DNA of 64,000 nucleotides from Mycobacteriales bacterium (GTDB lineage Bacteria > Actinomycetota > Actinomycetes > JAFAQI01). The stretch's first letter is position 1. Each line of letters starts with the position of its first letter. Position numbers and translations under genes: made by a program. Of this stretch, positions 4,360-38,155 are shown in pieces. Location of the stretch: contig DASSEX010000085.1 in assembly GCA_035695045.1 (NCBI GenBank), forward strand, positions 6,440 through 70,439. Direction: 5' to 3'. Under the pieces are notes generated by a model. It was given only the letters and a program-made list of their open reading frames with translations, searched no databases and was not told the origin of the DNA.

Positions 4360-5028
4360 ATGACGACGATCGCGCCGGTGGACGCCGCCACGCTCTACCG
4401 CGCACGGGCCGGACGGGTGGACTTCGTCGACGTGGGGACGGCGACGTTCCTCGTCGTCGACGGCTCGGGAGACCCGGGCGGCACGGAGTTCGCGGCTGCA
4501 CTCTCGGCGCTCTTCCCGGTGGCCTATGCCCTCCGGTTCGCGTTGCGGGAGCGCGGCGTGGACGAGAAGGTCTCGCCCCTCGAGGCGCTGTGGTGGAGCC
4601 CGAGCCCCGTCTCCGACTTCGCGGCCGCGTCGGCCGCCGGGGGCTTCACCGCCCGGCAGAAGCAGGCGTGGCGGTGGCAGGCGATGATCCGGGTGCCACA
4701 GGCCGCTGACGAGGCGTTCGTCGTGCAGACGGCGCGCGCGACCGAGCGCCGGCGACCGGAGCTCGCCGGAGCGATCGACCGGGTTCGCTACCTCACGTGG
4801 ACCGAGGGCCGGGCGGCGCAGACGCTGCATGTGGGTCCCTACTCGGAGGAGCTGCGGACCGTCCAGGCGTTGCACGCGGCCATCGCCGCGGCGGGTTGCC
4901 GCCCGCGGGGCCGTCACCACGAGATCTACCTGTCGGATCCGCGCCGTTGCGCGCCGGAGCGCCTGCGGACGATCTTGCGTCAGCCGGTCGAGCAGTCGTC
5001 CACAGGAGTTTTCCCGGGCCAGGCGTAA
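4360..5028 (+). CDS. GyrI-like small-molecule-binding domain protein
   Basis: Internal ATG (MTTIAPVD). FLVVDGSGDPGG..., LEALWW, HVGPYSEE..., HHEIYLSDPRR are typical of the GyrI-like/SOUL fold family. Confidence 0.75.
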   Translation: MTTIAPVDAATLYRARAGRVDFVDVGTATFLVVDGSGDPGGTEFAAALSALFPVAYALRFALRERGVDEKVSPLEALWWSPSPVSDFAAASAAGGFTARQKQAWRWQAMIRVPQAADEAFVVQTARATERRRPELAGAIDRVRYLTWTEGRAAQTLHVGPYSEELRTVQALHAAIAAAGCRPRGRHHEIYLSDPRRCAPERLRTILRQPVEQSSTGVFPGQA

Positions 5029-5046
5029 CGGGACCAAGGTCCCGTC
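5027..5046. promoter_or_regulatory. DosR/DevR-type operator-like palindrome (perfect)
   Basis: AACGGGACCAAGGTCCCGTC. The GGGACC/GGTCCC arms are perfect. It overlaps the TAA of the GyrI-like gene, and its centre is 44.5 nt upstream of ATG 5081. Confidence 0.6.
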
Positions 5047-5080
5047 CGCTTTGCGATCAGCGGAGAGGAAGTGGTGCGAA

Positions 5081-6550
5081 ATGTCCGCGCCGCTGGTGGA
5101 CGGGTGGGCAGCCGCCGTCGAGACACACACGGCAGCGCTGTACTTCGCCGGTGACCACGTCCTGAAGGTCAAGAAGCCGGTGTCCCTGGGCTTCCTCGAC
5201 TTCAGCTCGATCGAGGCACGCCGGGCGGCCTGCGCCGACGAGGTCAGGCTCAACCGTCGTCTCGCGCCGGACGTCTACCTGGGCGTCTCCGACATCGTGG
5301 TCGACGGCGCTGCCGTCGAGCACGGCGTGCTCATGCGCCGGCTTCCGCTGGACCGGTCGCTCTCCGCGCTCGTCGCCCGTGGCGTCCCATCGCTGGCGGA
5401 CGACGTCATCCGCCTCGCGCGCCTCTTCGCCGCCTTCCACGAGCATGCTCCGGTGGTGGGACGCGACGTCGCCGTCGACATCTGGACCCACCCGGGGCAG
5501 CTGTGGCGCGACAACGTCGCACAGGCGAGTGCGCTGTCTCCCGACGAGCTCCCGACCGAGGACCTCGACGCCGCCGAGTGGCTGGCCCAGCGCTACGTGG
5601 AGGGCCGGTCGGCGCTCTTCCGTGACCGCCTGAGTGCTGGGCTGGTGCGAGAAGGACACGGCGACCTGCTCGCGGACGACGTCTTCCTGCTCGCCGACGA
5701 ACCGCGGGTCCTCGACTGCCTCGAGTTCGACCAGCGGCTGCGCGTCGCCGACGTGCTTCTCGATGTCGCCTCTCTGGTGATGGATCTGGAGCGGCTGGGA
5801 CGGCCCGACCTCGGTCGGCTCTTCATGGACAAGTACGCCGCCGAAGCGGGTGAGAACCATCCGACGACGCTGGAGCACTTCTACATCGCGCATCGCGCAC
5901 TCGTCCGGGCCAAGGTCGCGGCGATCCGCGCCCAGCAGCTGAACGTGACGACGCGGGTGCCGCGCGACCTCCTCGCGATGTGCATCCGGCACCTTCAGTC
6001 GGCGCAGGTGCGGCTCGTGGTCGTCGGCGGTCTTCCGGGAGCAGGCAAGTCGACGATGTCGGCGCTTCTCGCGGGCCGGCTACCGGCCACCGTGGTGAGC
6101 TCGGACGCCGTGCGCTGGGAGCTGGCGCCGACCGGCGGCCCGGCGGCGTACGGCGCCGGTCGCTACTCGCCGGCCGTGACCAACCGCGTGTACGACGAGA
6201 TGATGCGTCGCGCTGCGGACCGGTTGGCGCACGGTGAGCACGTCGTCCTCGACGCCACTTTCGCCACGGACGCGCATCGCGCTGCGGCCCGTGAGGTCGC
6301 CCGGCGGCACGCCGCCGACCTGACGGAGATGTGCGTGGTCGTGGACGACGCGACGGCCGCACAACGCATCGCCGAGCGCGCCCGCGGTCTGGGCAGGTCG
6401 GAGGCCGACGTCGACGTCAGGAATCGGCTGCGTGCGCAGTTCGCGCCGTGGCCCGAGGCCTCGGTCGTCGACACCGACGCGGATGGTGCCGCCGGTGTCG
6501 TGGGCGCCGTTGCCGCCGCGTGCGGCGCGCCGCGCTCGTGGCCTGAGTGA
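5081..6550 (+). CDS. Bifunctional aminoglycoside-phosphotransferase-like / P-loop ATP-binding protein (Rv2004c-like)
   Basis: RBS GGAGAGGAA lies 10 nt upstream of ATG 5081. Kinase-like HGDLLADDVF in the N-terminal half, P-loop GGLPGAGKST in the C-terminal half. Confidence 0.8.
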   Translation: MSAPLVDGWAAAVETHTAALYFAGDHVLKVKKPVSLGFLDFSSIEARRAACADEVRLNRRLAPDVYLGVSDIVVDGAAVEHGVLMRRLPLDRSLSALVARGVPSLADDVIRLARLFAAFHEHAPVVGRDVAVDIWTHPGQLWRDNVAQASALSPDELPTEDLDAAEWLAQRYVEGRSALFRDRLSAGLVREGHGDLLADDVFLLADEPRVLDCLEFDQRLRVADVLLDVASLVMDLERLGRPDLGRLFMDKYAAEAGENHPTTLEHFYIAHRALVRAKVAAIRAQQLNVTTRVPRDLLAMCIRHLQSAQVRLVVVGGLPGAGKSTMSALLAGRLPATVVSSDAVRWELAPTGGPAAYGAGRYSPAVTNRVYDEMMRRAADRLAHGEHVVLDATFATDAHRAAAREVARRHAADLTEMCVVVDDATAAQRIAERARGLGRSEADVDVRNRLRAQFAPWPEASVVDTDADGAAGVVGAVAAACGAPRSWPE

Positions 6551-6570
6551 ACCCTCGGCCGGGTCCGATC

Positions 6571-7608: not shown

Positions 7609-7799
7609 GCCACGATCCTGCGCCGCCGGCGTGCGCGCCGACACCCGGCGTTGGTCACGGACGCCGAGGCCGAAGGTCACGAGCTCTGCGGCGCAGGTCT
7701 TTCGACTCTGGACCGCTCTCGCGCCCGGCTCGACGCTTGCCGCGCCGACACGACATCGGTGTCCAGGCTGCGATGTCGTCGGCACGGAGGTGCATGGCC

Positions 7800-8222
7800 A
7801 TGGTCGGCCGGAAAGCCCTACGCCGTGACCTGCTCGCCATGCTGTGGGTGGCTGTCGCGCTCGGCTTCTACGTCGTCAGTCTCGCGGTGACGATTCCCGG
7901 GTTCGGCAGTCCGCGTGCCGTGGCGGCTCTGATGCTGCTGCTGGGCGTGTTCGGGTGCGTCTCGGGCGCGGACACAGCGGCCATGACCAGTCACGGGGTG
8001 GCGACGCCCGCCGCCGCCGCTCTTCGGGTCGGCGGTGTCCTCGTCCTGGTCGTCGGTGTCGCTGCTGTGCTCACCGGATCAGCCGCGGCACTTGCCGGTC
8101 TCGCAGCCGGCATCGGCGTCATGTGGCTGGCGACCACGACTCGGCACCTCTTCGGCGCAACTGCTCCACGAAGTAGTCATGAGGCGCAACGTGCACGTGT
8201 GCGCGTGGGCGCCGGTCGTTGA
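7800..8222 (+). CDS. Hypothetical integral membrane protein
   Basis: GGAGG lies 9 nt upstream of ATG 7800. About four hydrophobic helices (LLAMLWVAVALGFYVV..., AALMLLLGVFGCV..., VLVLVVGVAAVL..., LAGLAAGIGVMWL). No family recognised. Confidence 0.45.
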   Translation: MVGRKALRRDLLAMLWVAVALGFYVVSLAVTIPGFGSPRAVAALMLLLGVFGCVSGADTAAMTSHGVATPAAAALRVGGVLVLVVGVAAVLTGSAAALAGLAAGIGVMWLATTTRHLFGATAPRSSHEAQRARVRVGAGR

Positions 8223-8242
8223 GTGAACAGAGAGGACGGATC

Positions 8243-8674
8243 ATGAGAATCGCGCGCATCGCCACAGCCGCTGCTGTCGCTGCACTCGCTGTCACGGGGG
8301 TGTCGGCCGCGCCCGCCGCAGCGACTCCGGACCAGACCTTCCACGGGACCTTCACCCAGGTCGTCTACACGCCGGAGACAGGGCCGGCGACCACGTCACC
8401 CGCGAGTGGGACGTGGAACGTCGCGATCCATCACGGCACGCTCGCCACGGCGACGTTCAACATCTTCGTCGACGGTGTGCACCACCTCGCCTACGGCGTG
8501 CCCCGCCAAGCGGTCGACACGAGCACGTCCGGGTGGGCATTCAGCTTCCCGACGCTTGCCGGCACGCTGACGGTCTCGCTCGATGGCAGCACGCTGTCCT
8601 ATGACATCCCCGACTACTCCTACTACGGGAGTTCTTACGCGGACGTCACGTACTTCGGCACCCTGGGGCGCTGA
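8243..8674 (+). CDS. Secreted hypothetical protein
   Basis: RBS AGAGGACGG, signal peptide MRIARIATAAAVAALAVTGVSAAPAAA, then a beta-rich mature part. No family recognised. Confidence 0.55.
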   Translation: MRIARIATAAAVAALAVTGVSAAPAAATPDQTFHGTFTQVVYTPETGPATTSPASGTWNVAIHHGTLATATFNIFVDGVHHLAYGVPRQAVDTSTSGWAFSFPTLAGTLTVSLDGSTLSYDIPDYSYYGSSYADVTYFGTLGR

Positions 8675-8690: not shown

Positions 8691-8927
8691 TCAGGCCACG
8701 GAGTGACTCGGCACGCGAGCGGCAAGGCGCAAGCGAGCCGAGGCCTCCGTGGCAGGGACGAGACCACGCCGGACACCGCTCCGCAGGAGGTGTTCCCGGC
8801 TGAGGGACACGCAGTCGATGACGCGAGCGGCAGCGATCCTGCCGGCGTACTCAGCGATGAGCCTCTGGGTCATCGCCAGCATCTCGGCATGAGTGGCGTG
8901 CCGGTCGAAGGAGTTGTCCACGTGCAT
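8691..8927 (-). CDS. Small conserved hypothetical (three-helix-bundle dimerisation-domain-like)
   Basis: RBS GGGTGGAG precedes ATG 8927. MHVDNSFDRHATHAEMLAMTQRLIAEYAGRIAAARVIDCVSLSREHLLRSGVRRGL is helical and resembles small actinobacterial three-helix proteins. The assignment is tentative. Confidence 0.5.
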   Translation of the reverse strand: MHVDNSFDRHATHAEMLAMTQRLIAEYAGRIAAARVIDCVSLSREHLLRSGVRRGLVPATEASARLRLAARVPSHSVA

Positions 8928-8983: not shown

Positions 8984-9003
8984 TTAGGGACTTTGGTCCC
9001 TGG
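8984..9003. promoter_or_regulatory. DosR/DevR-type operator-like palindrome
   Basis: TTAGGGACTTTGGTCCCTGG against the M. tuberculosis consensus TTSGGGACTWWAGTCCCSAA. Lies between divergent starts 8927 (-) and 9144 (+). Confidence 0.6.
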
Positions 9004-10727: not shown

Positions 10728-12116
10728 ATGAGCCCCGTGCCCGCCGGCCTGGATTTCCTCGGGGGCGCCGGCACGGTCACCGGCAGCAAGTTCCTCGTGA
10801 CCGCCGGCGGCACTCAGGTGCTCGTCGACTGCGGGCTGTTCCAAGGTCTGCGCGAGCTACGGCGACGCAACTGGGACCCGTTCCCGCGGCCGCCGGGCGA
10901 CATCGACGCCGCGGTCATCAGTCACGCGCACCTCGACCACAGTGGGTACCTCCCGGCCCTCGTCCGCGACGGCTTCAGCGGTCCGATCTACCTGAGCTCC
11001 GGGACCGCTGCACTGGCCGACATCGTGCTGACCGACAGCGCGCATCTGCTTGCCGAGGACGCGGAGCATGCGCGGGTTCACGGCTACTCGAAGCACGACC
11101 CGCCGCTGCCTCTCTACACGGACGCGGACGTAGATGCCGCTGTCGCGTTGTTCCGGCCGGTTGCCTTCGGTGCATCGGTCACCGTCGGACCGGACCTGGC
11201 CGCGGAGCTGCAGCCGGCGGGTCACATCCTCGGATCGGCGTCGGTGCTGCTCACGCCGGCTGACGGTCCACGCGTGCTGTTCTCCGGCGACCTCGGCCGT
11301 AACCGGCATCCACTGCTGCGTCCCCCGCCGCCGCCACCCGAGGCGGACACGATCGTCGTCGAGTCGACGTACGGAAACCGGCAGCATGATCGCGACGAGG
11401 ACCATGACCGGCTCGCCGACGCGATCCGGCGCACCGTGGCGCGGGGCGGCTCTGTCGTCATCCCCGCCTTCGCGGTGGACCGCACCGAGGTCATCCTCAT
11501 GAGCCTGCGCGAGCTCCGCCGTGCCGATGCGATCCCGGACATCCCCATCTACGTCGACAGCCCGATGGCGCTGGCCGCTCTGCGGGTGTATCGCGAGGCC
11601 ATTCGCCGGCACGATCCGGAGCTGCGCGATGACCTTCCGGCCGTAGACCCGTTCGACCCGGGCAACGTGCACGAGCTGCGGACCGCGGCGGAGTCCAAGA
11701 CGATCAACAACCCGCGCTGGCCGTGCCTGATCATCTCTGCGTCGGGCATGGCGACGGGAGGGCGGGTGCTGCAACATCTCGAGTCGCTCATGCCGGAAGC
11801 ACGCAACACCGTCGTCCTCGCCGGCTACCAGGCCGTGGGCACCCGCGGGCGTGACCTGCTCGACGGCGCACGCTCGGTCAAGCTGCACGGCCGGAACGTG
11901 CCGGTGCGTGCCGAGATCGTCAACGTGCCGTTCTTCTCGGTGCACGCCGACGCCGGCGAGATCGTCGACTGGCTGCGTAGGGCCCCGCGGCCGCCGTCGA
12001 GCTGCTACGTCGTGCACGGCGAGCCGGAAGCGGCGGATGCGATGGCGGGCCGTATCCGTGGCGAGCTCGGCTGGTCGGTCACCGTGGCGTCCCTCGGCCA
12101 GCACGTCCGGCTCTGA
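10728..12116 (+). CDS. MBL-fold beta-CASP hydrolase (RNA-metabolising type)
   Basis: RBS GGAGGA. HAHLDHSGYLP (HxHxDH), ESTYG, and a C-terminal HGE motif typical of beta-CASP nucleases. Confidence 0.88.
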   Translation: MSPVPAGLDFLGGAGTVTGSKFLVTAGGTQVLVDCGLFQGLRELRRRNWDPFPRPPGDIDAAVISHAHLDHSGYLPALVRDGFSGPIYLSSGTAALADIVLTDSAHLLAEDAEHARVHGYSKHDPPLPLYTDADVDAAVALFRPVAFGASVTVGPDLAAELQPAGHILGSASVLLTPADGPRVLFSGDLGRNRHPLLRPPPPPPEADTIVVESTYGNRQHDRDEDHDRLADAIRRTVARGGSVVIPAFAVDRTEVILMSLRELRRADAIPDIPIYVDSPMALAALRVYREAIRRHDPELRDDLPAVDPFDPGNVHELRTAAESKTINNPRWPCLIISASGMATGGRVLQHLESLMPEARNTVVLAGYQAVGTRGRDLLDGARSVKLHGRNVPVRAEIVNVPFFSVHADAGEIVDWLRRAPRPPSSCYVVHGEPEAADAMAGRIRGELGWSVTVASLGQHVRL

Positions 12117-12124
12117 ACCGAGCC

Positions 12125-12141
12125 GCACGTAACTGAGGCCC
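12125..12141. promoter_or_regulatory. DosR-like box, CCTAAGCCTCT subclass
   Basis: GAGGCCCTAAGCCTCTG, about 70 nt upstream of the USP start. Shares GG(A/C)CCTA(A/C)GCCTCT with the sites at 20661 and 29471. Confidence 0.4.
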
Positions 12142-12209
12142 TAAGCCTCTGTCCGCGGGATGGCCTCACCTCGGACGCTGGTGTTGTACGAAGCGACAGA
12201 GAAGACGAG

Positions 12210-12677
12210 GTGGGACAGATGAGCGGGATCGTCGTCGGGCTCGAGGACGCGCCGGACGCGATGAGCGCGCTGGACTGGGCCCTCACCGAGGCTGCCGAGC
12301 GTCACGAGCCGTTGACCGTGGTCAGTGTCGTGAACGACCTGCCTGTCGCAACGCCGGGTTTCTACGCCAGCGACGCGGCGGGTCACGTGCACGACGTACG
12401 CCGTTCCACCCGAAGCTGGGCCGATCGCGTCGTGAAGTCGACGGTCGCCCGGCACCGGGACGTGGCGGGCGTCTCCGTGAAGGTGAAGGTCGTCGGAGGT
12501 AGCCCCGCGAAGGTGCTGACCGACATGTCACGGGACGCGTCGATGGTCGTCGTCGGAAGGCGGGGATCCAACCCCGTCAGCCGCTTGCTGCTGGGATCGG
12601 TGAGCAGCACTGTCGTGCACCACGCAGAGTGCCCGGTGGTCGTCGTACCGGAGGAGGGGTCAGGTCATGAAGGCTGA
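12210..12677 (+). CDS. Universal stress protein (single domain)
   Basis: IVVGLEDAP..., VVGRRGSNPVSRLLLGSVSSTVVHHAECPVVVV. Start is GTG 12210 or ATG 12219. Confidence 0.88.
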   Translation: MGQMSGIVVGLEDAPDAMSALDWALTEAAERHEPLTVVSVVNDLPVATPGFYASDAAGHVHDVRRSTRSWADRVVKSTVARHRDVAGVSVKVKVVGGSPAKVLTDMSRDASMVVVGRRGSNPVSRLLLGSVSSTVVHHAECPVVVVPEEGSGHEG

Positions 12678-14418: not shown

Positions 14419-14471
14419 CCTTTCCGTGTACCTGTGGCGTCGCGGCGACGGTAGGGGCGAATGGCCCATCC

Positions 14472-14488
14472 GGGACCATCGACCCTGG
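14472..14488. promoter_or_regulatory. DosR-like box
   Basis: GGGACCATCGACCCTGG between the divergent binding-protein gene (14418) and the P-type ATPase. Its centre is 43.5 nt from GTG 14522. Confidence 0.45.
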
Positions 14489-14521: not shown

Positions 14522-17260
14522 GTGGTCGAGCTGTGGGACGGCGCACGCGACGCGGAAGCACGCTCCGCGGAGCCGCCCGGGCTCGACATCGAGGTCCAGG
14601 TCGCCGATGCCGGCGAACCCCTTCCCGCCTTCCTGCGTCGACTGCGGACCTCCGCGAACGGGCTGTCGGACAGGGAGGCTCACCGCCGGCTCCTGCAGGT
14701 CGGTCCGAACATGCTGCCTCCGCCTGCGGGGTCCCGTTGGCTGAGGGATCTCTCCGACCAGCTGGTCCACCCGCTCGCCCTGGTTCTCTGGGCCGCAGCA
14801 GCGCTGGCGTGGTTGTCGGGCACCCACGGCATCGCTGCGGCGATCGTCGCCGTCATCGTGGTCAACGCCCTCTTCGCGTTCGTGCAGGAACAGCAGGCGG
14901 AGCGCGCTGCCGAGGCGCTCAACTCGCTGCTGCCTGCGTCGTCCGTCGTCATTCGTGACGGTGTCTCCTGCTCGGTCGCTGCCGCCGAGCTCGTGCCGGG
15001 CGACCTCCTCGTCATCGAGGAAGGCGACCGGATCAGTGCCGACGCGCGCCTGGTCTCCGGCGACCTCGAAGTGGACATGTCGGCCGTCACCGGTGAGTCG
15101 ATGCCGGTCGACCGCTCGGCCGGGCCTTCGGCGGGCGGCACAGGCAGATGGATGAGCCAGACCAACCTCGTGCTGTCCGGGACGCTGTGCACAGCGGGGG
15201 AAGCCCGGGCACTCGTCTTCGCGACGGGCAGCCACACCGAGCTCGGCCGGATCGCCGCACTGTCCCAACGGGTGACGCGCGACCGCAGCCCGCTGGAGCG
15301 CCAGGTGCGCACGGTCGCCTGGCTCATCGCCGCCGTGGGGACCGTCGTCGGCGCCCTCTTCATGCCGCTCGGCCTGCTGGCCGGGCTGTCGGCGCACGAC
15401 TCGTTCCTCTTTGCCGTCGGGCTTCTCGTGGCCAACGTGCCGGAGGGACTGCTGCCGACGATCACCCTGGCCCTGGCCGTCGGCGTGCGCAGCCTGGCCG
15501 GGCGAGGTGCGGTGGTGAAGCGGCTCAGCGCCGTCGAGACGCTCGGTGCGACGACGGTGATCTGCACCGACAAGACCGGCACGTTGACGCTGAACCGGAT
15601 GGCCGTCGTGCGGATGTGGACGCCGGCCACCGGCCCCGTCGCCCCGGGCGCCCCGGGTGCCGAGCCGCTCGTCGCCGCGATCGCCGCGTGTTCCACCGTC
15701 GTGGAGACCGCCGAAGGACCGACGAGTGCGGATGCGACCGAGCTGGCTCTCTTCGAGCTGACGGCTCCGGGCGATCGCCGCCGCCTCGTCGAAGAGCGGG
15801 ACGCAGCGCGGGTGGCCCTTTTCCGCTTCAGCTCGGAGCGCCGGAGGATGTCCGTCGTCCAGCGCGAGGACGCCGCCTTCGCGATCTACGCGAAGGGTGC
15901 GGTCGAGGCGGTCTTGCCGAGATGCGCCGATGTCGTCGGCACGGATGTCGCAGCGCTGCCCACCGACGGCGCCGCAGCGGCGCGCGACGTCGCGGATGAC
16001 ATGGCGCGGGACGGTCTACGTGTGCTCGCGATCGCGTCGCGCCGCGAGCTGACGGTCGTCGCCGATGCGGATGCAGCGGAGCGCGATCTCGTTCTGCTCG
16101 GCGTCGTCGGGCTGCTGGACCCACCTCGGCCCGAGGTGCCCGCTGCGATCGCGGCATGTCACGACGCCGGCATCAGGATTCACGTCGTCACGGGCGACAA
16201 CGGCGCGACCGCCGCCCACATTGCGCGCGACGTGGGTATCGGACGCGACGGGCTGGTGGTCATCTCCGGTGACGAGCTGGATGCCATGACCGAGCCCGAG
16301 CTCGACGAAGTGCTCGCCCGGGACGCCGAGATCGTCTTCGCGCGTAGCTCTCCGGAGGCGAAGCTTCGCATCGCGGACGCGCTGCGCGCGCTCGGTCACG
16401 TCGTTGCCATGACGGGTGACGGCGTGAACGACGCGCCCGCACTGCACCGGGCGGACATCGGTGTCGCCATGGGGTTGAGCGGCACCGACGTGGCCCGCGA
16501 GTCGGCGACGATGGTGCTGACCGACGACAACTTCGCGACGATCGCGGCAGCTGTCGAGGAGGGCCGTCGGGTCTACGCCAACGTACGGAAGTTCATCCTC
16601 TACATCTTCGCCCACGCGACTCCGGAGATCGTCCCGTTCCTCGTCTTCGCGTTGGCCGGGGGGCTGGTCCCGCTGCCGTTGACGGTCGTCCAGATCCTCG
16701 CGATCGACCTCGGCACGGAGACGTTGCCGGCGCTCGCTTTGGGACGCGAGGGCGCCGAGCCGGGGACGATGTCCGCGCCGCCGCGGCCGCGCTCGGAGAA
16801 CGTCGTCACCCGTCCGCTTCTCACCCGCGCGTGGCTGCTCCTCGGTGGTGTCTCCGCCGCACTGGTGTGCGGGGCGTTCTTCCTCACCCTCCAACACGTC
16901 GGCTGGCATCCGGGCGCAGCGACCGGCCGCTCCTCGCCCCTGCACCACGGCTATCAGGAGGCGACGACGGCGACCTTCGTCGGGATCGTCGCCTGCCAGC
17001 TCGGGACCGCATGGGCTGCCCGCCGCGACCGAGCCCGCATCCGGGACATGGGCATCTGGAGCAACCGCCTGCTTCTCGCCGGTGTCGCGTTCGAGGTCGG
17101 GTTCACGGCGGCGGTCGTGACGCTGCCCGGACTGAGCGGTCTCCTCGGCATGGCGGTGCCGCCTCCGCTGACCCTCGCCGTCATCGCGACGTTCCCTTTC
17201 ATCGTCTGGGCTGCGGACGAGCTGCGGCGCCGGCTGGCAACGCGGGACCTCCGGCCCTAG
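14522..17260 (+). CDS. Cation-translocating P-type ATPase (type II, PEGL)
   Basis: TGES (VTGESMPV), [31 protein letters not shown]. No in-frame ATG lies after the divergent gene, so GTG 14522 is the chosen start and it is uncertain. Confidence 0.9.
17244..17260. promoter_or_regulatory. DosR-like box
   Basis: GGGACCTCCGGCCCTAG covers the last codons and stop of the ATPase, 51 nt upstream of the tandem USP ATG 17311. Confidence 0.4.
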
Positions 17261-20660: not shown

Positions 20661-20677
20661 AGGACCTACGCCTCTAT
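20661..20677. promoter_or_regulatory. DosR-like box, CCTAAGCCTCT subclass
   Basis: GGCAGGACCTACGCCTCTAT matches GGCAGGACCTAAGCCTCTGG at 29468 in 17 of 20 positions. Lies upstream of the Zn-ADH. Confidence 0.4.
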
Positions 20678-24347: not shown

Positions 24348-24366
24348 CAGGGCCGAAAGACCCTGG
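24348..24366. promoter_or_regulatory. DosR-like box
   Basis: CAGGGCCGAAAGACCCTGG (CAGGG/CCCTG arms) between divergent ATPase start 24179 (-) and GNAT. Its centre is 43.5 nt from GTG 24400. Confidence 0.5.
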
Positions 24367-29470: not shown

Positions 29471-29487
29471 AGGACCTAAGCCTCTGG
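29471..29487. promoter_or_regulatory. DosR-like box, CCTAAGCCTCT subclass
   Basis: AGGACCTAAGCCTCTGG in the divergent region between the GAF-DDAH operon and the USP-arcA-ABC operon. Confidence 0.45.
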
Positions 29488-30403: not shown

Positions 30404-31639
30404 ATGCCGATGCCCGTGCCGACCGGATTCGGCGTTCACTCCGAGGTCGGGACGTTGCGCCGTGTCATGCTGCACCGCCCTGACCTCGAGCTGCAGCGAC
30501 TCACGCCGTCCAACGTCGACGATCTGCTGTTCGACGAGATCCTCTGGGTGAAGAGGGCCAGACAGGAACACGACGTTTTCGCCGACGCGCTGCGCGACCT
30601 CGGTGTCGACGTGGTGCTGCTCGGGGACCTGCTCGCCGAGGCACTCAAGACGGAAGCGGCCGTGGACTGGGTGCTGGACCGGGTGGCGACGCACCGCACC
30701 CTCGGCCCGACACTGGTGGCGCCGGTTCGGGACCATCTGCGGTCGCTCGATCCCGAGACGATGGCGCGCCACCTCATCGGGGGACTCACCCGGGCCGAGC
30801 TCGGTCGAGACGTGCCCAGCCTGCGACTCGCGACCCTGCGTCCCGCCGACTTCGTCCTGCCGCCGCTGCCCAACCACATGTTCACCCGTGATCCCTCTTG
30901 CTGGATCTACAGCGGGGTCTCCATCAACCCCATGGCGAAGCCGGCGCGGGCCCGCGAAACCGTTCACGTGCAGGCCATCTACCTCTTCCACCCGATGTTC
31001 GCCGAAGAGCGCTTCCCGGTCTGGTACGGCGCCGATCGCGGCGACAGCGCTCCGGCCACGATCGAGGGTGGCGACGTCCTCGTCCTCGGCAACGGCGCCG
31101 TGATCATCGGCATGGGCGAACGCACGGCGCCGCAGACCGTGGAGATCCTCGCGACCCGCCTCTTCGACGCCGGCTTCGCACGACGCGTTCTCGCGGTCGA
31201 GCTGCCGAAGTCGAGGGCCTTCATGCACCTCGACGCGGTCCTGACCATGGTCGACCGGGATGCCTTCATCGCGTATCCCGCCGTGGCGGAGTCGCTGCGG
31301 GTGTGGTCGCTGACGCCCGGCGTCGACGGCCGTCCGGTCGTCGCCGTGGAGCCGGGAGTCTTCCCCGCGGTCGCGGACGCGCTCGGCCTCCCGAACGTCC
31401 GCGTGCTCACGACCGGCGGCGACAGCGTCGAGGCCGAACGCGAGCAGTGGGACGACGGCAACAACGTGCTGGCCGTGCGCCCGGGAGTCGTCGTGGCCTA
31501 TGAGCGCAACGCCGACACCAACACCAAACTGCGCAGGGCAGGCATCGACGTCATCACGATCGCGGGCAGCGAGCTCGGTCGCGGTCGTGGTGGCCCGAGG
31601 TGCATGTCCTGCCCGCTCGTCCGGGATGTGGTGACGTGA
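30404..31639 (+). CDS. arcA: Arginine deiminase
   Basis: [27 protein letters not shown]-terminus, FTRDP, MHLD, and C-terminal catalytic [10 protein letters not shown]. Confidence 0.93.
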
Positions 31640-32364
31640 TGACGGACCAACCGATCCTCGTCGCGACCGACGTCGCGAAGATCTACCGCACCGGTGAAGT
31701 GGCGGTCCAGGCCCTCAAGAGTCTGACGCTGACCGTCGAGCCGGGCGAGCTCGTCGCTGTGATGGGGCCGAGCGGCTCCGGCAAGACGACGTTGCTCAAC
31801 TGCCTGTCCGGACTCGACGACATCGACTCCGGTCACGTCGTCGTCCAGGGAAGAGACCTGTTCGCGATGAGGGACGGGGACCGCACCGAGCACCGCGCGA
31901 AGACGATGGGTTTCATCTTTCAGGCGTTCAACCTGATCCCGGTCTTCAGTGCGGCCGAGAACGTGGAGCTACCACTGCTGCTCGTCGGCACGTCGCCGGC
32001 CGCGGCGCGCGAGCGGGCGGTCGCGATGCTCGAGCGGGTCGGTCTGGGTCATCGGGTCAACCACCGCCCCGCCGAGATGTCGGGCGGCGAACAGCAGCGC
32101 GTCACGATCGCGCGCGCTCTCGTCGGCCGTCCGGCGATCGTGTGGGCGGACGAACCGACCGGCAACCTGGACTCGACCATGGCCACCGAGATCATGGATC
32201 TCCTCTGTGAGCTGAACGCCCGTGACCGGCAGACGATCGTCCTCGTCACCCACGACTCCGCGATCGGCGAGCGAGCCGGTCGGATAATCCGGATGCGCGA
32301 CGGCATGTTGGTCGACGACAGCCCACGACACGCACCGCCTGCACCCGCGCTGCTCACGAGGTGA
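31639..32364 (+). CDS. ABC transporter ATP-binding protein (MacB/LolD type)
   Basis: The ATG shares 1 nt with the arcA TGA. Walker A GPSGSGKTT, signature MSGGEQQRVTIARAL, Walker B IVWADEPTGNLD. Confidence 0.93.
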   Translation: MTDQPILVATDVAKIYRTGEVAVQALKSLTLTVEPGELVAVMGPSGSGKTTLLNCLSGLDDIDSGHVVVQGRDLFAMRDGDRTEHRAKTMGFIFQAFNLIPVFSAAENVELPLLLVGTSPAAARERAVAMLERVGLGHRVNHRPAEMSGGEQQRVTIARALVGRPAIVWADEPTGNLDSTMATEIMDLLCELNARDRQTIVLVTHDSAIGERAGRIIRMRDGMLVDDSPRHAPPAPALLTR

Positions 32365-35286
32365 GTGATGTATCCCGAGCTGACCGCGCCGCTCGCCGGG
32401 ATTCTTCTGGTCGGGCTGGCGCTTCTTGCGTGGCCGGCGCTGCGCTGGCCGGTCGTGCGCCGCCTCGCCGTCCGTCAGGTCGCGCGGCGTCGTACCGAAG
32501 GCCTGCTGGTCATGGCCGGTGCGAGCCTCGGCGCGGCGATCATCGTCGGGTCGCTGGTCGTCGGTGACACGCTCGGTTTCTCGGTCCGCCAGGTGGCCTA
32601 CCGCACTCTCGGCAACGTCGACGAGCGAGTGGTCAGCACCGATGCGGATGCCGGAGGCATCGTCGCCGATCGCCTTCTGCAGCTGACGCGTTCACCCGAC
32701 GTCGACGGCGTGCTTTCCGCTCGGGTCCAGCAGGTCGCGGCGACGGGCGGCACCGGTGCGGGCGTCATCGCTGAACCACGCGTGCTGGCCTGGGACATGG
32801 ACTTCGCGGCCGGTCGTGCGTTCGGTGCGGCAGCCGCTCCATCAGGTCTGGTGGGGCCCGCTCCCGGACCGGACCAGGTGGTGGTGAACGCGCCGCTCGC
32901 CGATGCGCTGGCACTGCACGCGGGGTCGACGGTCACGGTCTACGTCTCCGGTGCACCGCATCAGTTCCGCGTGGTCCGCGTCCTTCCGGAACGTGGGCTG
33001 GCCGGCACCGGGTTCGGCGCGGCTCAGAACCGCAACCTCTTCCTGCCACCCGGGACGCTGGTGCCTGCGGAGGGCGTGAATGACGGGACCCGGTGGATCA
33101 CCTTCGTGAGCAACCGGGGCGGCGTGCAGTCCGGCGACGAGCTGACAGCTCGCGTGAGCCGGCAGATCCGCGCGGCGCTCGGCGTGGTCGGTTCACGCAC
33201 GCTGGTCGAGACGCCGAAGCACGAGGTGCTCCAGTCCGCCAAGAAGACGGGTGACAGCCTCGGCGCGCTGTTCCTCATGATCGGCAGCTTCAGCATCATC
33301 GCGGGCGCGCTGCTTTTGATGAACATCTTCGTGATGCTCGGTGAGGAGCGGAAGTCGCAGCTCGGAATGTTGCGCGCGGCCGGGCTCAAACGCAGCCATC
33401 TTGTCGCCGCATTCTCCCTGGAGGGCGCGGTCTACGCGATCGCCGCGGCTGTCGTCGGCATCGGTCTGGGCATCGCGCTCGGCAGAGGCGTCGCCTACAT
33501 CGCCGCGCGCATCTTCGGCACCTGGTCTGCGGACGGCTCCGGGCTCGCTGTCACGTTCTCCGTCTCCAGGACGAGCATCGTCAACGGTGCCGCGCTCGGG
33601 CTGGTCATCGCTCTGGTGACGATTGCTGCGACCAGTGTGCGCATCAGCCGCTTCAACATCATCGCCGCGATCCGCGACCTTCCGGCGGCGGGTGCGCCTC
33701 GCTCCAGCCGGCGGACGCTGGTGGCGAGCACAACCTTCGGCGTGTTCTTCGCCGTGCTGTCGGTGCCGGCCGTCGCGTCGAGCAACCCGATCGGCACGTT
33801 CCTGTTTCCTGCGCTTTCTGTCCTATGCGCCGCTCCGATGCTGTCGAGGTCGATCGGCCGTCGATGGGCCTACTCCGCTCTCTCCGTTGCGGTGCTCGCC
33901 TGGACCCTGCTGGTCAACGTCGTGCGCCCCGGCGTCTACGACACGCCGTCGATGGCCCTGTATGTGGTGATGGGCACGCTGCTCGCGCTGTCCGCGGTCC
34001 TCGTCGTCAGTGAGAACCAGACCGTCCTGCTCCGGCCGGTACGCCGGTTGCTCGGGCGTTCGACCGAGGGAGCACTGTCCGCCCGGCTGGCCGTTGCCTA
34101 TCCGATCGCGAAACGCTTCCGCACGGGCGCGACGCTCGTGATGTACACGCTGGTCTTCCTGGTCCTCGTCCTCATCACCCAGATCGGTGGCGTGCTGGCG
34201 CACAGCGTCGACTACCAGGTGGCGAGCTCGACGTCGGGCTACGACGTGCGCCTGGACTTCAGGCCGGGTGCGCAGATGCTCGCCTCGTTGCGCTCGGGCC
34301 CGCTCGCTGCTCAGATCACGCAGGTGACCGGCTTGACATCCGCGTCCGCGCAGGCGCTCGATCCCGGGCATCGGACCACGGACCCGGTCGAGACGCTGGC
34401 CGTCGGCGTACCTGCGGGCTCGGTGTCCCGCATGCAGTTCCAGGACCGGTTGGCAGGGTTGACGACGGACGCGCAGGTCTGGCGAGCGCTCGCCCGTGAT
34501 CCCGGGTACGTCGTCCTCGACGCCTTCTTCGGCGCGACGGGTGGGCCACCCGGCCAGTGGTACGCCCCGGGCGACAAGTTCGTCCTCGTCGACCCGCTCT
34601 CGGGGCGTCAGGAGACGAAGACGATCGTCGGCATCCTGCGCAACTCGACGGTCTTCTACTCACCTGTGACGCCGACGGCGTTCCCCGTCGTGATGAACGA
34701 TGCCGCGGTTCGAGCCTTCTTCCGCGGTCGAGCACTGGTGGACTCCGCCCTGGTGCGCGCCGCGCCGGGCGTCGCTCCTGCACAGCTGTCCGCGCGTCTC
34801 CAGGGCAGCTACCTGGCGGCGAGTCTCGTGGCCACCCCGGTGGCGGCCACGATCCGACGGATGTTCGACGGCAACGTCGCCTTCTTCCGGCTCATGGACG
34901 GGTTCCTCGCTCTCGGTCTGCTGATCGGCATCTGCGGGCTGGGTGTGGTGATGGTGCGGGCGGTGCGCGAGCGGCGACGGACGATCGGGGTCCTGCGTGC
35001 GCTGGGCTTCCGGGCGGGAACCGTGCAGCGGTCGTTCCTGATCGAGAGCGGTTTCGTCGCCTTCGAAGGCGTCGTCCTCGGTGGTGTGCTCGGCGTCGTG
35101 ACGACCTGGCTCATGTATCAGAAGAGCGCGATGTTCGCCGATCTCCAGACCGGCTTCCCGGTGTTGTGGGGGACGGTCAGCGTGCTGGCTCTCGTGACGG
35201 TCGTGATGTCACTGCTCGCGACGGCGGCGCCGGCTCGACGGGCGGCGCACATTCTTCCGGCGCTGGCCACCCGGGTGTCCGACTGA
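32365..35286 (+). CDS. Large FtsX-family ABC permease with two FtsX repeats
   Basis: Starts the nucleotide after the ATPase stop. Two blocks of FtsX-type helices (…LGMLRAAGLKRSHLV… and …IGVLRALGFRAGTVQ…), each preceded by a large extracytoplasmic region. Confidence 0.88.
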   Translation: MMYPELTAPLAGILLVGLALLAWPALRWPVVRRLAVRQVARRRTEGLLVMAGASLGAAIIVGSLVVGDTLGFSVRQVAYRTLGNVDERVVSTDADAGGIVADRLLQLTRSPDVDGVLSARVQQVAATGGTGAGVIAEPRVLAWDMDFAAGRAFGAAAAPSGLVGPAPGPDQVVVNAPLADALALHAGSTVTVYVSGAPHQFRVVRVLPERGLAGTGFGAAQNRNLFLPPGTLVPAEGVNDGTRWITFVSNRGGVQSGDELTARVSRQIRAALGVVGSRTLVETPKHEVLQSAKKTGDSLGALFLMIGSFSIIAGALLLMNIFVMLGEERKSQLGMLRAAGLKRSHLVAAFSLEGAVYAIAAAVVGIGLGIALGRGVAYIAARIFGTWSADGSGLAVTFSVSRTSIVNGAALGLVIALVTIAATSVRISRFNIIAAIRDLPAAGAPRSSRRTLVASTTFGVFFAVLSVPAVASSNPIGTFLFPALSVLCAAPMLSRSIGRRWAYSALSVAVLAWTLLVNVVRPGVYDTPSMALYVVMGTLLALSAVLVVSENQTVLLRPVRRLLGRSTEGALSARLAVAYPIAKRFRTGATLVMYTLVFLVLVLITQIGGVLAHSVDYQVASSTSGYDVRLDFRPGAQMLASLRSGPLAAQITQVTGLTSASAQALDPGHRTTDPVETLAVGVPAGSVSRMQFQDRLAGLTTDAQVWRALARDPGYVVLDAFFGATGGPPGQWYAPGDKFVLVDPLSGRQETKTIVGILRNSTVFYSPVTPTAFPVVMNDAAVRAFFRGRALVDSALVRAAPGVAPAQLSARLQGSYLAASLVATPVAATIRRMFDGNVAFFRLMDGFLALGLLIGICGLGVVMVRAVRERRRTIGVLRALGFRAGTVQRSFLIESGFVAFEGVVLGGVLGVVTTWLMYQKSAMFADLQTGFPVLWGTVSVLALVTVVMSLLATAAPARRAAHILPALATRVSD

Positions 35287-35293
35287 TCGACCG

Positions 35294-36097
35294 TCAGGCG
35301 AGGTCGCGGCGACCGACCCTGCGCGCAGCGAGTCCGAAGAGCAGTGTGCCGGCGGCGAGCAGCGCGGCCTCGTTGCCCCACTGCAGCCGTTGCGCCGCGT
35401 CGATCGGTGCGTAGTAGCCGAACGGGTTGATCCAGCGCACGAACGACAACGGCGACCACAGCAGCCCGACGAGGTTGACGACGTAGGAGCCGGCCGTCAC
35501 TCCGACGGTCGCGCCGAAAGCCGCACCCCGGCTGCGCGCGTGGGCCGACGCCGCGAAGGCGACGCCGGCGACGAAGAACGCCAGCGAGATGAACTGCACG
35601 GAGGCGCGAAGCGGCACGGCCGCCGAGACCTGCGACAGGTCCGAGGACAGCTGCATGCCGATCAGCGCACCGACCAGAGCCACTGTGATGACCCCGAGCT
35701 CTGCCAGGGCCCATTCGGCAATCCGCGCGCCGAGGACCTGGGTCGGCCGGACGGGCGCGGTGAAGATGAGCTCGGAACGGCCGGTCTCGACGTCGGTCGC
35801 GATCGCGGCGACACCGCTGGTGATCGCCACGCTCAGCGCGAGCACGAGGAAGAGCGGATGACCGAACCCGAACGCGAGGAAGTGCGGAGGCGTGAACACG
35901 TCGCCCGTCGACGAACCCGAGAAGGCCGAGAAGAGCTTCGGCGTCCTGCCTGCACCGAACGTGTTGGCGAACCCTGCCGCCCCGCCGTACGCGCTGTAGG
36001 TGCCGGACAGGGCGATCAACAGCACGAAACAGCCGCCGGCGAGCGCAGCAAGGCTTCGCCACCGGTTGCGGAGGTCGGCGCGGATCAGTGCCCTCAT
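35294..36097 (-). CDS. ABC-2 type exporter permease
   Basis: Six hydrophobic segments. 4-nt overlap with the upstream ATPase gene. Confidence 0.75.
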   Translation of the reverse strand: MRALIRADLRNRWRSLAALAGGCFVLLIALSGTYSAYGGAAGFANTFGAGRTPKLFSAFSGSSTGDVFTPPHFLAFGFGHPLFLVLALSVAITSGVAAIATDVETGRSELIFTAPVRPTQVLGARIAEWALAELGVITVALVGALIGMQLSSDLSQVSAAVPLRASVQFISLAFFVAGVAFAASAHARSRGAAFGATVGVTAGSYVVNLVGLLWSPLSFVRWINPFGYYAPIDAAQRLQWGNEAALLAAGTLLFGLAARRVGRRDLA

Positions 36098-37062
36098 GAC
36101 GACGGTGCTCCGCTGTAGAGCGCGAGTACGACGTCCTCGAGAGATGCGGGCACGACGGTGACGTCGACGACGTCTGGGTCTGTCAGCAGGTCGCGCAGCA
36201 CCCCGGCCCGGTCGGCGGCGAGCCGACCGATCACCGTCGTGCCCTCTGTCCGAACCTCGGACAGTCCGCTCGGCAGCCGCTCCGGCGGCGAGGCGTAGGT
36301 CAGTGTCACGACCCGGGGTGCGTCCTCGCGCAGCTCGTCGACGGTGGCCTCCTTCAGCAGCGCGCCGTCCCGGACGAGCAGGACGGAGTCACAGACTGCC
36401 TCGACCTCTGCCAGAACGTGCGAGGACAGCAGGACCGTGGCGCCCTCCGCTGCCATCTCCCGAACGAGGCGGCAGAACGAGCGGTGGGCGATCGGATCCA
36501 GCCGGTTGGCGGGCTCGTCGAGGACCACGAGCGCCGGGCTGTGCTGAACCGCCGCGACGATGGCCAGCTTCTGACGCATGCCGGAGCTGTAACCACCCAC
36601 GCGCCGGCCGAGATCCGACTCGTCGAGGTCGAGGGCCTGCAAGGCCCGCTGCCGCATGCCGGCAGCAGCGTCACCGCGCAGTCGCAGGAGCAGATCGAGG
36701 TTGTCCCGGCCGGACAGGTTCGGCAGGAAGGACGGATCCGCGGGCATGTAACCCAGCGGTCGTCGCGCCCGTGGATCCCGGGCGTCGACCCCGAACAGCC
36801 GTACGTCGCCGGTCGTCGGGCGGAGCAGACCGCCGACCATGCGCAGCGTCGTCGACTTGCCCGCGCCGTTCGGGCCCAGGAAGCCGGTGATCGTTCCGCG
36901 TCGCAGCGAGAACGTCAGGTCCGCAACCGCAGTCAGTTCGCCGAAGCGTTTGGTGACGTGCGCCACGTCGATCGGGGCATCCGCCCGGTCGGCCGTCGTG
37001 TCCACAAAGGAGAGGTTGCCATCGCTGTCGCCTGCTTCGAGGACTTTCGGCTCTGTCGGCAT
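36094..37062 (-). CDS. ABC transporter ATP-binding protein (ABC-2/DrrA type)
   Basis: Walker A GPNGAGKSTT, signature YSSGMRQKLAI, Walker B LVVLDEPANRLD. The start is uncertain (ATG 37062, or GTG 37005). Confidence 0.88.
   Translation of the reverse strand: MPTEPKVLEAGDSDGNLSFVDTTADRADAPIDVAHVTKRFGELTAVADLTFSLRRGTITGFLGPNGAGKSTTLRMVGGLLRPTTGDVRLFGVDARDPRARRPLGYMPADPSFLPNLSGRDNLDLLLRLRGDAAAGMRQRALQALDLDESDLGRRVGGYSSGMRQKLAIVAAVQHSPALVVLDEPANRLDPIAHRSFCRLVREMAAEGATVLLSSHVLAEVEAVCDSVLLVRDGALLKEATVDELREDAPRVVTLTYASPPERLPSGLSEVRTEGTTVIGRLAADRAGVLRDLLTDPDVVDVTVVPASLEDVVLALYSGAPSS
37039..37055. promoter_or_regulatory. Weak DosR-like box
   Basis: GAGGACTTTCGGCTCTG, 76 nt upstream of the acg-type gene. 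It lies inside the first codons of the divergent ABC ATPase if ATG 37062 is the true start. Confidence 0.3.
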
Positions 37063-37130
37063 GGCCGGACGGCGCGCACGCTTGAGACATGGCGGAGGTC
37101 GTTCTCGCCCGATCATGAGGAGGGACTGCC

Positions 37131-38123
37131 ATGACGCCCGGCAAGTTCGCCATCCCTCTGTCGACCCAGGACGCGAAGTGGGCGGTTGGTCAGGCCTGCT
37201 TGGCGCCGTCGGTGCACAACACTCAGCCGTGGCACTTCCGCTGGGACGGCTCGACGTACGAGCTCTATGCGGACACCTCACGCGGATTGACCGAGAGCGA
37301 CCCCGACGGTCGCGAGCTCGTCCTCAGCTGCGGCGCCGCGTTGTTCAACCTGCGCATCGCCCTGCGCAAGCTCGGCTACGACGCGAGCGTCGACGTGCTG
37401 CCGGACAGCAGCAACCCGAGGCTGCTCGCGCGGGTGTCCGTCGCGGAGTCGACACCGGCAGACCCGGCTGAGCGCCGAACCTTCGCGGCCATGTCTCGCC
37501 GGCACACCCACAGGGGAGCATTCGACGACACGGTGCTGACGCCGAAGATCGCGGTGTTCATGCAACGCGCCGCAGAGGACGAGGGCGCCGAGCTCATCTT
37601 CGTCGCGGACCCGGGGCAGCGACGTCGCGTGCTGTCGCTGGCGCGGGCGGCCGAACGCACGGTCGCCAACGACCCGGACGTGCAGGCGGAGCTCGCCGAG
37701 TGGACCCCGCCGCCGAACAGCCGCCGCAAGGACGGCGTGCCGGTGACGGCGTACGCAGCGGAACCGCTGGTCGGCGTCGACGACCTGGCGCCGCGCGACT
37801 TCGACGCAGGCCGTGGCTACGGCGTCGCCGAGACGACCGTGAACACCCCCGGACTCGTCGCCGTCCTGGTGACGGAGACCGACCTCATGCACGACTGGGT
37901 GACTGCCGGCCAGGCGCTCGAGCGCGTGCTCATCTGCGCAGCGGAGCATGACGTCTACGCCACCCTGCACTCGCAGATCACCGAAGTTCCCAACCTGAGA
38001 AGTGAGCTCCGGCGTGAGCTCTGCGTCTCGGGCCACCCGCAGATCCTGCTCCGGTTCGGCTACGCGGAAGACGGTCACCACACTCCGCGACGGCCGGTAG
38101 AGGACGTGCTGGAGCTTCCATGA
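37131..38123 (+). CDS. Acg-family FMN-binding nitroreductase-like protein
   Basis: APSVHNTQPWHFRWDG...ELYAD..R....DPDGRELVLSCGAALFNLRIALR is the signature N-terminus of the Acg (Rv2032-like) family. Confidence 0.85.
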   Translation: MTPGKFAIPLSTQDAKWAVGQACLAPSVHNTQPWHFRWDGSTYELYADTSRGLTESDPDGRELVLSCGAALFNLRIALRKLGYDASVDVLPDSSNPRLLARVSVAESTPADPAERRTFAAMSRRHTHRGAFDDTVLTPKIAVFMQRAAEDEGAELIFVADPGQRRRVLSLARAAERTVANDPDVQAELAEWTPPPNSRRKDGVPVTAYAAEPLVGVDDLAPRDFDAGRGYGVAETTVNTPGLVAVLVTETDLMHDWVTAGQALERVLICAAEHDVYATLHSQITEVPNLRSELRRELCVSGHPQILLRFGYAEDGHHTPRRPVEDVLELP

Positions 38124-38139
38124 CCCGGGGACGCGAGAC

Positions 38140-38155
38140 GGGACTTTCGCCCCTG
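38140..38155. promoter_or_regulatory. DosR-like box
   Basis: GGGACTTTCGCCCCTG, 49 nt upstream of the DUF5709-USP-CBS operon start 38204. Confidence 0.55.

Follow-up and report, generated by a model that had tools for sequence, protein, structure and literature searches.

The 64,000-nt stretch of contig DASSEX010000085.1 analyzed here (the window) comes from an uncultured soil actinobacterium of the order Mycobacteriales that is known only from metagenomes. It carries an island of about 35 kb of stress and dormancy genes in which a short palindromic box recurs upstream of one gene or operon after another. We conclude that these boxes are very probably sites for a dimeric response regulator of the DosR/DevR/OsdR type (NarL/GerE family) that is encoded outside the window; the identity of this regulator, activation as the sign of regulation and the inducing signal are what we infer from the data below. 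A sequence-only reading of the same DNA had proposed a DosR-family regulon laid out as one island. Box architecture, activator positions, gene content and conservation all favor that proposal. The novelty of the contiguous layout was overstated, since a contiguous DosR-type island has already been described in Streptomyces coelicolor (SCO0167-SCO0219, PMC5069765).

The island thus adds another case to a type of regulation that is already known and does not represent a new one, and the picture of how DosR-type regulons work is unchanged. It extends the DosR/OsdR type of hypoxia and dormancy regulon to an uncultured soil lineage of the Mycobacteriales and offers a clean, self-consistent promoter model, with a box near -42.5, a weak -10 element and frequent leaderless transcripts, all predicted. 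It also attaches an unusual cargo to the conserved core, namely peptidoglycan remodeling, an arginine deiminase with ABC and FtsX proteins, and several cation pumps (three ATPases). The one component with the potential to open a new direction is the pairing of a kinase-dead haem sensor with a dimethylargininase.

Box sequence and promoter geometry

The window has a G+C content of 70%, and only about 6% of it is non-coding. Genes were called by third-position G+C and their starts then refined; boxes were sought with a 17-nt position weight matrix (PWM) and judged against dinucleotide-shuffled versions of the window. An exact string search found each of the ten 14-mers listed by the sequence-only reading once, all on the forward strand. 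Nine lie at the positions first given, and the third lies at 12136-12149 instead of 12126. By column counts, G2, G3, G10, C12 and C14 are indeed invariant across the ten sites, as is C5, and a T directly 3' of the core is present in 9 of 10. Only 7 of the 10 sites conform to the consensus originally written for the set, RGGACYWWVGNCYC, and the box is better described as 5'-RGGAC-YTWM-GNCYC-T-3'. As had been claimed, all ten precede genes, in each case on the forward strand, with 36 to about 143 nt between the end of the core and the refined start codon.

The boxes are far from random. In a split-half cross-validation, a PWM built from five sites gave the other five 10-18.5 bits, and chance matches of at least 14 bits were expected only 0.03-0.4 times per shuffled window. 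The all-site PWM returned 15 strand-specific matches of at least 13 bits versus 0.57 in the shuffles, a clear excess on a comparison that the sequence-only reading had itself named as a way to refute it. All of these matches fall within 4.3-38.2 kb, and the 25 kb on the right (39-64 kb) hold none. The strict pattern RGGNCNWWNGNCYCT, which was derived post hoc, matches 12 times against 0.25 expected. The PWM scan added boxes at 4309, 7695 and 14454 (reverse strand), plus a weak one at 12100. After start refinement the matches are almost exclusively intergenic, the exceptions being the weak 12100 site and 17244, which overlap the 3' ends of the genes upstream. In contrast, the window shows no enrichment of GGGAC-N4-GTCCC, the bare DevR core, with 8 matches versus 6.9 expected at up to one mismatch and 64 versus 86 at up to two. 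In DNA of 70% G+C, this lack of enrichment indicates that specificity comes from the A/T-rich center of the box and the flanking T.

The DNA downstream of the boxes is equally regular. A hexamer of the form ANNNT starts 24-25 nt past the core at 9 of the 12 window sites (p=7e-11, background 0.041), and it is found at the same offset in 44 of the 63 matches of at least 12 bits in the window and eight related loci (background 4.1%). Its consensus is [C/G]A[C/G]N[C/G]T, and a conserved C-T-G-n-C lies directly 3' of the core. If the hexamer is the -10 element, a computational assignment, the box center falls at about -42.5 or -43.5 and C-T-G-n-C becomes a weak -35. The predicted geometry therefore has a proximal box that abuts or overlaps the -35 region and is centered near -42.5, which is the placement that defines a Dev box. 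The usual first T of a -10 element is almost never present in the ANNNT hexamers, which fits activator-dependent promoters. Additionally, start codons lie 35-37 nt past the core at four forward-strand genes (4360, 5081, 14522 and 24400/24403) and at 14418 on the reverse strand. This is the position of the predicted transcription start, so several island genes would have leaderless mRNAs. Leaderless mRNAs are common in actinobacteria. The geometry also bears on the divergent gene pairs at 29471 and 37040, where only the forward-strand gene has an oriented box and a -10; control of the GAF-dimethylargininase and ABC-2 genes on the reverse strand, as far as it had been implied, is unsupported.

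In the mechanism that we propose, a NarL-family dimer encoded elsewhere would bind one box per promoter, with its center about 42.5-43.5 bp upstream of the transcription start, so that the box would abut or overlap the weak -35 (C-T-G-n-C) and be followed by the weak -10, [C/G]A-N3-T, 24-25 nt past the core. Left to themselves, such promoters would be weak, and transcription from them would depend on the phosphorylated regulator binding and recruiting RNA polymerase, in the manner of class II activation. Some 13 promoters would co-induce about 28 genes between 4.3 and 39.4 kb. These would include universal stress protein (USP) genes, an Acg-type nitroreductase, a CBS protein, an Rv2004c-like P-loop protein, three P-type ATPases and a Zn-dependent alcohol dehydrogenase (Zn-ADH), together with an acetyl-CoA hydrolase/transferase, an arginine deiminase with an ABC exporter-like system, and peptidoglycan-remodeling enzymes. 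The signal would presumably be hypoxia, nitric oxide (NO) or carbon monoxide, with a haem-GAF kinase encoded outside the window as the sensor.

Relatives, known systems and competing explanations

Conservation was examined in a close relative (L001) and in more distant loci reached through homologues of the beta-CASP protein and the GAF protein of the island. L001, a metagenome-assembled genome of the Mycobacteriales at about 81-84% DNA identity, is the only close relative among the GTDB species representatives. A scan of genome contigs with the Acg-like protein returned L001 (85% amino acid identity) plus one irrelevant match, and a scan of metagenome contigs returned only a 27%-identical match without boxes. 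In L001, the box cores corresponding to 29471, 37040 and 38140 are identical, and pairwise alignments of the three alignable promoters show that the box, the -10 block and the ribosome-binding site are kept while the spacers have diverged. Furthermore, L005, L006, L008 and L010-L015 have the same box at the same spacing before the same gene families, and orthologues of the 29471 box were found in L008, L012 and L013. The more distant relatives hold shuffled sets of the island families, to which they add HSP20, WS/DGAT, flavodoxin and pyridoxamine oxidase genes. When sites were pooled over nine loci, G3, C5, G10 and C12 were kept in 43-44 of 44, although these sites had been pre-selected by the window PWM and the -10 spacing. 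Divergent promoters often have a pair of boxes placed back to back at a distance of 18-20 bp, or else boxes that overlap and consist of three half-sites, and in these arrangements each box faces its own -10-like hexamer. Examples are 14454-14485 in the window, 14501-14534 and 15942-15962 in L012, 15342-15374 in L013 and 13456-13476 in L008.

Comparison with Mycobacterium tuberculosis DevR/DosR shows extensive agreement. Half-sites in M. tuberculosis read G4G5G6A7C8T9, and two positions of the 18-bp box, G5 and C7, are essential; the boxes of tgs1 and Rv3131 are centered at -42.5 and -63.5 (PMC3177182). The box described here shares the GGGAC-N4-GTCCC core, the proximal position near -42.5 and four critical G/C positions, its invariant G3, C5, G10 and C12 being those essential in M. 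tuberculosis. The shared targets are an Acg/Rv3131-type nitroreductase, USPs, a CBS protein (Hrp1), a ctpF-like P-type ATPase and an Rv2004c-like protein, and the relatives add an HSP20 protein resembling HspX and a WS/DGAT protein resembling Tgs1. The two systems differ in that the window cluster lacks a regulator and an intact kinase, in that the flank here is a T after the core, without TTS...SAA, and in that most promoters here have one recognizable box versus two to four tandem boxes in M. tuberculosis. Targets added here are an L,D-transpeptidase, two polysaccharide deacetylases, a beta-CASP hydrolase, the acetyl-CoA hydrolase, the arginine deiminase with ABC/FtsX and three ATPases, along with a kinase-dead DosS/T paralogue paired with dimethylargininase.

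DosR-type regulons outside M. tuberculosis are known from Streptomyces islands (PMC5069765) and as a small core with species-specific additions (PMC10034137). Three components are conserved between the DosR regulons of M. tuberculosis and M. abscessus, namely a nitroreductase, a USP and an orthologue of Rv2004c (PMC10034137). The window holds these conserved targets as the Acg/Rv3131-type nitroreductase, five USPs and the Rv2004c-like protein at 5081-6550, which we infer to be an orthologue because of its architecture and because nitroreductase and USP genes are syntenic with it in L011, L013 and L014. The island shares this core with M. abscessus DosRS, which illustrates how DosR regulons retain a few core genes and gain many species-specific ones (PMC10034137). 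However, dosRS adjoins the core genes in M. abscessus, and the species-specific additions differ.

The closest parallel in layout is S. coelicolor's OsdR/OsdK system (SCO0204/SCO0203). The OsdR consensus is a 16-nt palindrome, AGGGCCGATCGGCCCT, of the form AGGGnC-N4-GnCCCT with the same A...T flank, and its sites are concentrated in SCO0167-SCO0219, a region rich in USPs that includes a Zn-ADH and a nitroreductase (PMC5069765). As in the window, many boxes lie within one contiguous region, most of them roughly 50-100 nt upstream of a start codon. In contrast, the center of the OsdR box is G+C-rich (CCGNNCGG), whereas the center here is A/T-rich (CYTWMG), as in M. tuberculosis. Furthermore, osdRK lies inside the Streptomyces island and is autoregulated, while the window has no GerE-type regulator and no nitrate reductase or transporter genes. 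A matrix built from the sites in Table 1 of PMC5069765, a subset of which had been tested by electrophoretic mobility shift assay, placed five GGG...CCC sites within its top 16 window matches. Five of the six GGG...CCC sites scored 8.4-12.7 bits and the sixth, 5030, scored 5.8, with a matrix that is barely above chance in this DNA. The top window match of the OsdR matrix (15.9 bits) was AGGGCCGGTCGGCGCT at 5601-5616, within the coding sequence of the Rv2004c-like protein; it scores -15.8 bits with the window matrix and is probably a G+C-rich chance match.

Several observations weigh against a DosR-type regulator acting at these boxes. No GerE/NarL-type response regulator was found in the window or the 15 related loci, either by Pfam on the window genes or by tblastn with DevR. 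The AGG...CTC sites score only -3.7 to 6.6 bits with the OsdR matrix. Three palindromic sites (5030, 8987 and 24350 in its forward orientation) have no ANNNT at the expected offset. Finally, two recognizable boxes per promoter occur only at 14454/14472 (18 bp) and perhaps at 12100/12136 (36 bp), and the PWM scan of the window sites found no tandem secondary boxes at about 21 bp, whereas every M. tuberculosis promoter has two or more tandem boxes (two to four), about 21 bp apart center to center and bound cooperatively (PMC3177182). By itself this last point does not decide the matter, because the secondary boxes of M. tuberculosis are poorly conserved (PMC3177182) and could be missed by a PWM.

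These points have to be set against what the alternatives can explain. It is unlikely that a regulator of another family, for instance of the CRP/FNR type, or a NarL/LuxR paralogue unrelated to DosR, has converged on a similar site to control a stress regulon. Such a regulator would account for the lack of a DosR-like gene in some 300 kb of window and related loci and for the DevS-like kinases of L011, L014 and L015, which are orphans and in L014 are followed by an OmpR-type regulator. The geometry would suit it as well. In FNR class II promoters a 5-N4-5 inverted repeat centered near -42 is equally classical; as proposed here, a dimer of FNR or CRP binds the repeat about 41.5-42.5 bp upstream, overlaps the -35 and offsets a weak promoter. 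However, it is the box sequence, beyond its geometry, that equals the DevR/OsdR box, including the positions essential in M. tuberculosis, and the gene content is that of the conserved DosR core. FNR and CRP belong to another protein family with a TTGAT rather than a GGGAC half-site, and no CRP/FNR gene is present in the window. OmpR-type regulators usually bind direct repeats. We considered the OmpR-type two-component system at 887-3012, a HAMP-HisKA kinase and a regulator at the left edge of the island, and rejected it, as the box is an inverted repeat and as the window regulator shares only about 42% identity with the OmpR-type regulators of L010 and L014, which indicates that no conserved link ties this system to the island. 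We also consider it quite improbable that two related regulators share the island, one for GGG...CCC and the other for AGG...CTC boxes. The sequence-only reading had set the sites at 12136, 20661 and 29471 apart as a subclass that might have a second specificity; A1 and T13 do co-occur perfectly in the window (5 versus 8 sites, Fisher p=0.0008), and the AGG...CTC sites are the ones with low OsdR scores. This subclass does not hold up among relatives, where orthologous promoters switch class. The box of the USP operon is AGGACCTAAGCCTC in the window and L001 and AGGACCAAAGCCTC in L012 (all A1/T13) but GGGACCTAAGCCTC in L008 and L013 (G1/T13), the Zn-ADH box has a CTC end (T13) in the window but CCC (C13) in L012 and L013, and boxes of the mixed G1/T13 type occur frequently. 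The -10 spacing does not differ between the classes, and the four positions that DevR needs for binding are kept in both. Class switching and shared spacing together argue that position 1 (R) and position 13 (Y) are degenerate within one specificity.

The remaining explanations dispense with a bound regulator. That the repeat is a promoter element of an alternative sigma factor, with GGGAC serving as a -35 of the extracytoplasmic function (ECF) type, is very improbable. The ECF -35 element GGAAC does resemble GGGAC, and the orientation of the motif and its distance to the -10-like element are fixed. However, 32-33 nt separate the end of the 5' half-site from the -10-like hexamer, beyond any -35/-10 spacer. 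Furthermore, the sites at 5030, 8987 and 24350 are perfect or near-perfect palindromes, as would be expected for a dimer, and back-to-back or overlapping boxes serve divergent promoters in relatives. We give practically no credence to the view that a G+C-rich pattern merely matches by chance in DNA of 70% G+C. The unenriched bare DevR core would suit chance, but the tests refute it. Chance is contradicted by the split-half cross-validation and the shuffles, by matches that are almost all intergenic in a window with so little non-coding DNA, by the fixed -10 spacing (p=7e-11) and by identical boxes in a relative at about 81-84% DNA identity. A DosR-type regulator thus remains our preferred explanation.

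The proposed regulator and a kinase-dead haem sensor

The sequence-only reading noted that no NarL-type regulator or intact DosS/T kinase is present in the window, and Pfam and tblastn searches agree. The M. tuberculosis DevR query, whose sequence was checked against PDB 3C3W, gave nothing at E<=1e-3 in tblastn of the window and the related loci except receiver domains. A protein database search with DevR gave at least 120 matches, and the 120 listed were all M. tuberculosis variants. The regulator gene is part of the cluster both in M. tuberculosis and in S. coelicolor (for S. coelicolor, PMC5069765).

The island does encode a relative of the DosS/DosT sensors. The 430-residue protein at 28098-29390 (reverse strand) has a GAF-A/GAF-B/DHp architecture and aligns over 94-99% of its own length with full-length DevS-like kinases at 43-49% identity. 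For its GAF-A domain, the match to DosT (2VZW) has E=7e-48 and that to DevS E=1e-42. The alignment shows that the motifs GHPxM..FLGVP and FGN[IL]YLTEK are kept, which we take to surround the haem-ligating proximal His and the distal Tyr. The H-box, in contrast, is AIAAEMNDQVVSRLF where the kinases have RIARDLHDxVIQRLF, so that EMND replaces DLHD and the phospho-accepting His has become Asn. The protein stops after the second DHp helix (HisKA_3 19 bits, cut-off 24), and Pfam finds no HATPase_c domain in it. Given the EMND H-box and the missing ATPase domain, we conclude that this protein is not a kinase.

The gene overlaps by 8 nt a gene for a Streptomyces-type dimethylargininase (DDAH; 27341-28105, reverse strand; NF045660, 407 bits), with which it forms an operon divergent from the 29471 box. 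The GAF-DDAH pair, divergent from a USP operon, recurs in L008 (14152-16237), L012 (10001-12065) and L013 (8515-10573), and the short, kinase-less form occurs in about 11 protein clusters. A literature search for kinase-less DosS/T paralogues found nothing relevant. Full-length DevS-like kinases are encoded in L011 (10001-11770), L014 (10001-11857) and L015 (10001-11860), within box-bearing clusters of USP, Acg and Rv2004c-like genes and with no GerE-type regulator next to them; the DevS-like kinase of L014 is directly followed by an OmpR-type regulator and a kinase.

None of the relatives examined has the regulator in its island, which, together with the conserved kinase-dead paralogue within or beside the regulon, raises the possibility that this lineage wires its regulon unlike Mycobacterium and Streptomyces. 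We tentatively suggest that the haem sensor and DDAH, translationally coupled, could form a new gas-sensing module and that the DosR-type regulon may be wired differently here, a suggestion that we hold with considerable doubt. The kinase-dead paralogue might act as a decoy that heterodimerizes with the true kinase or sequesters DosR and so tunes the response. Alternatively, it might be an O2- or NO-controlled regulator of methylarginine and arginine catabolism beside the arginine deiminase operon.

Genes and sites across the island

Most gene identities proposed by the sequence-only reading were supported by Pfam and NCBIfam; the exception is the label DUF5709 for the open reading frame (ORF) at 38204-38512, which has no Pfam match even at E<=1. 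Features below lie on the forward strand unless noted. The island opens with the additional box GTGACCATCGGCCC, followed by T, at 4309..4322 (13.9 bits; ANNNT at offset 25). It lies upstream of a gene for a GyrI-like protein (4360-5028) whose ATG at 4360 is 37 nt past the core, a leaderless geometry. The perfect palindrome GGGACCAAGGTCCC at 5030..5043, with no clear ANNNT at offset 24 or 25, precedes the gene for the Rv2004c-like protein (5081-6550; 489 residues with a C-terminal AAA_33 domain by Pfam), and the ATG at 5081 is again 37 nt past the core. An NlpC/P60 gene (6571-7680, reverse strand; Pfam/NCBIfam) is separated by the additional box AGGTCTTTCGACTC at 7695..7708 (16.9 bits; ANNNT at offset 24) from a small membrane-protein gene at about 7773-8222, recognized by frame plot and ORFs, which is followed by a secreted-protein gene (8219-8674).

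The perfect palindrome A-GGGACTTTGGTCCC-T at 8987..9000 scores 19.1 bits in either orientation and has no ANNNT at offset 24 or 25 either way. It lies upstream of an operon for a YkuD-type L,D-transpeptidase (Ldt), a polysaccharide deacetylase and the beta-CASP hydrolase (9084/9144-12116; Pfam/NCBIfam). A small ORF (8691-8927, reverse strand) is divergent from this operon and adjoins the palindrome; it gave a sub-threshold NCBIfam match to a three-helix bundle dimerization domain (E=0.0098), and no -10-like hexamer stands at the expected offset on its side of the box. Within the end of the beta-CASP gene, the weak possible secondary box AGCACGTCCGGCTC (12100..12113; 12.0 bits) lies 36 bp upstream of the box AGGCCCTAAGCCTC at 12136..12149. 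The latter, with ANNNT at offset 25, precedes a USP gene (12219-12677) and a DUF1918 gene (12667-12870), both assigned by Pfam/NCBIfam.

The additional box GGGCCATTCGCCCC, followed by T, at 14454..14467 on the reverse strand scores 10.2 bits and fits the strict pattern RGGNCNWWNGNCYCT. It faces a gene for a Peripla_BP_6 solute-binding lipoprotein (13075-14418, reverse strand), whose ATG at 14418 is 35 nt from the core. Back to back with it, at 18 bp center to center, the box GGGACCATCGACCC at 14472..14485 (CATGGT at offset 25) precedes P-type ATPase A (14522-17260), the GTG of which at 14522 is 36 nt past the core, in leaderless geometry. The box GGGACCTCCGGCCC at 17244..17257 (CAGCGT at offset 24) lies upstream of an operon for a tandem USP (17311-18180), a deacetylase (18198-19073), a protein with two transmembrane segments (19162-19416) and the acetyl-CoA hydrolase/transferase (19429-20649). 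The Zn-ADH gene (20739/20766-21809; Pfam/NCBIfam) follows the box AGGACCTACGCCTC at 20661..20674 (CAGCGT at offset 25).

Between the divergent units of P-type ATPase B (21837-24290, reverse strand; Pfam/NCBIfam) and of a GNAT protein (24400-24912) with P-type ATPase C (24919-27375) lies the near-palindrome A-GGGCCGAAAGACCC-T at 24350..24363, which can be read in both orientations. In the reverse orientation it has GAGCGT at offset 24, facing ATPase B, and on the other side the GTG at 24400 is 36 nt past the core. The box AGGACCTAAGCCTC at 29471..29484 (GAGCGT at offset 24) precedes the operon of a USP (29531-30373), arginine deiminase (30404-31639), an ABC ATPase (31636-32364) and an FtsX permease (32365-35286). 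Beyond an ABC-2 system (35294-37005, reverse strand; Pfam/NCBIfam), the box AGGACTTTCGGCTC at 37040..37053 (CACGCT at offset 24) lies upstream of the Acg-family FMN oxidoreductase gene (37131-38123; NF047509, 312 bits against a cut-off of 199). The last box, GGGACTTTCGCCCC at 38140..38153 (AAGGCT at offset 24), precedes the small ORF at 38204-38512, a USP gene (38509-38925) and a CBS-pair protein gene (38936-39373), the latter two assigned by Pfam/NCBIfam. USP genes in the window number five by Pfam.

Rfam and tRNA scans of the window gave no matches, and its G+C profile shows no compositional trace of recent horizontal transfer of the island. Outside the island, two adjoining genes for SpoIIE/PP2C-type phosphatases (48093-52009) lack boxes; the second adds HATPase_c_2 (anti-sigma-kinase-like) and GAF domains. 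At 41682-43305, a gene for a CsoR-type metal-sensing repressor is followed by one for a predicted ArsP_1 permease with a C-terminal YHS domain, and the two likely form a copper or metal efflux unit unrelated to the box island.

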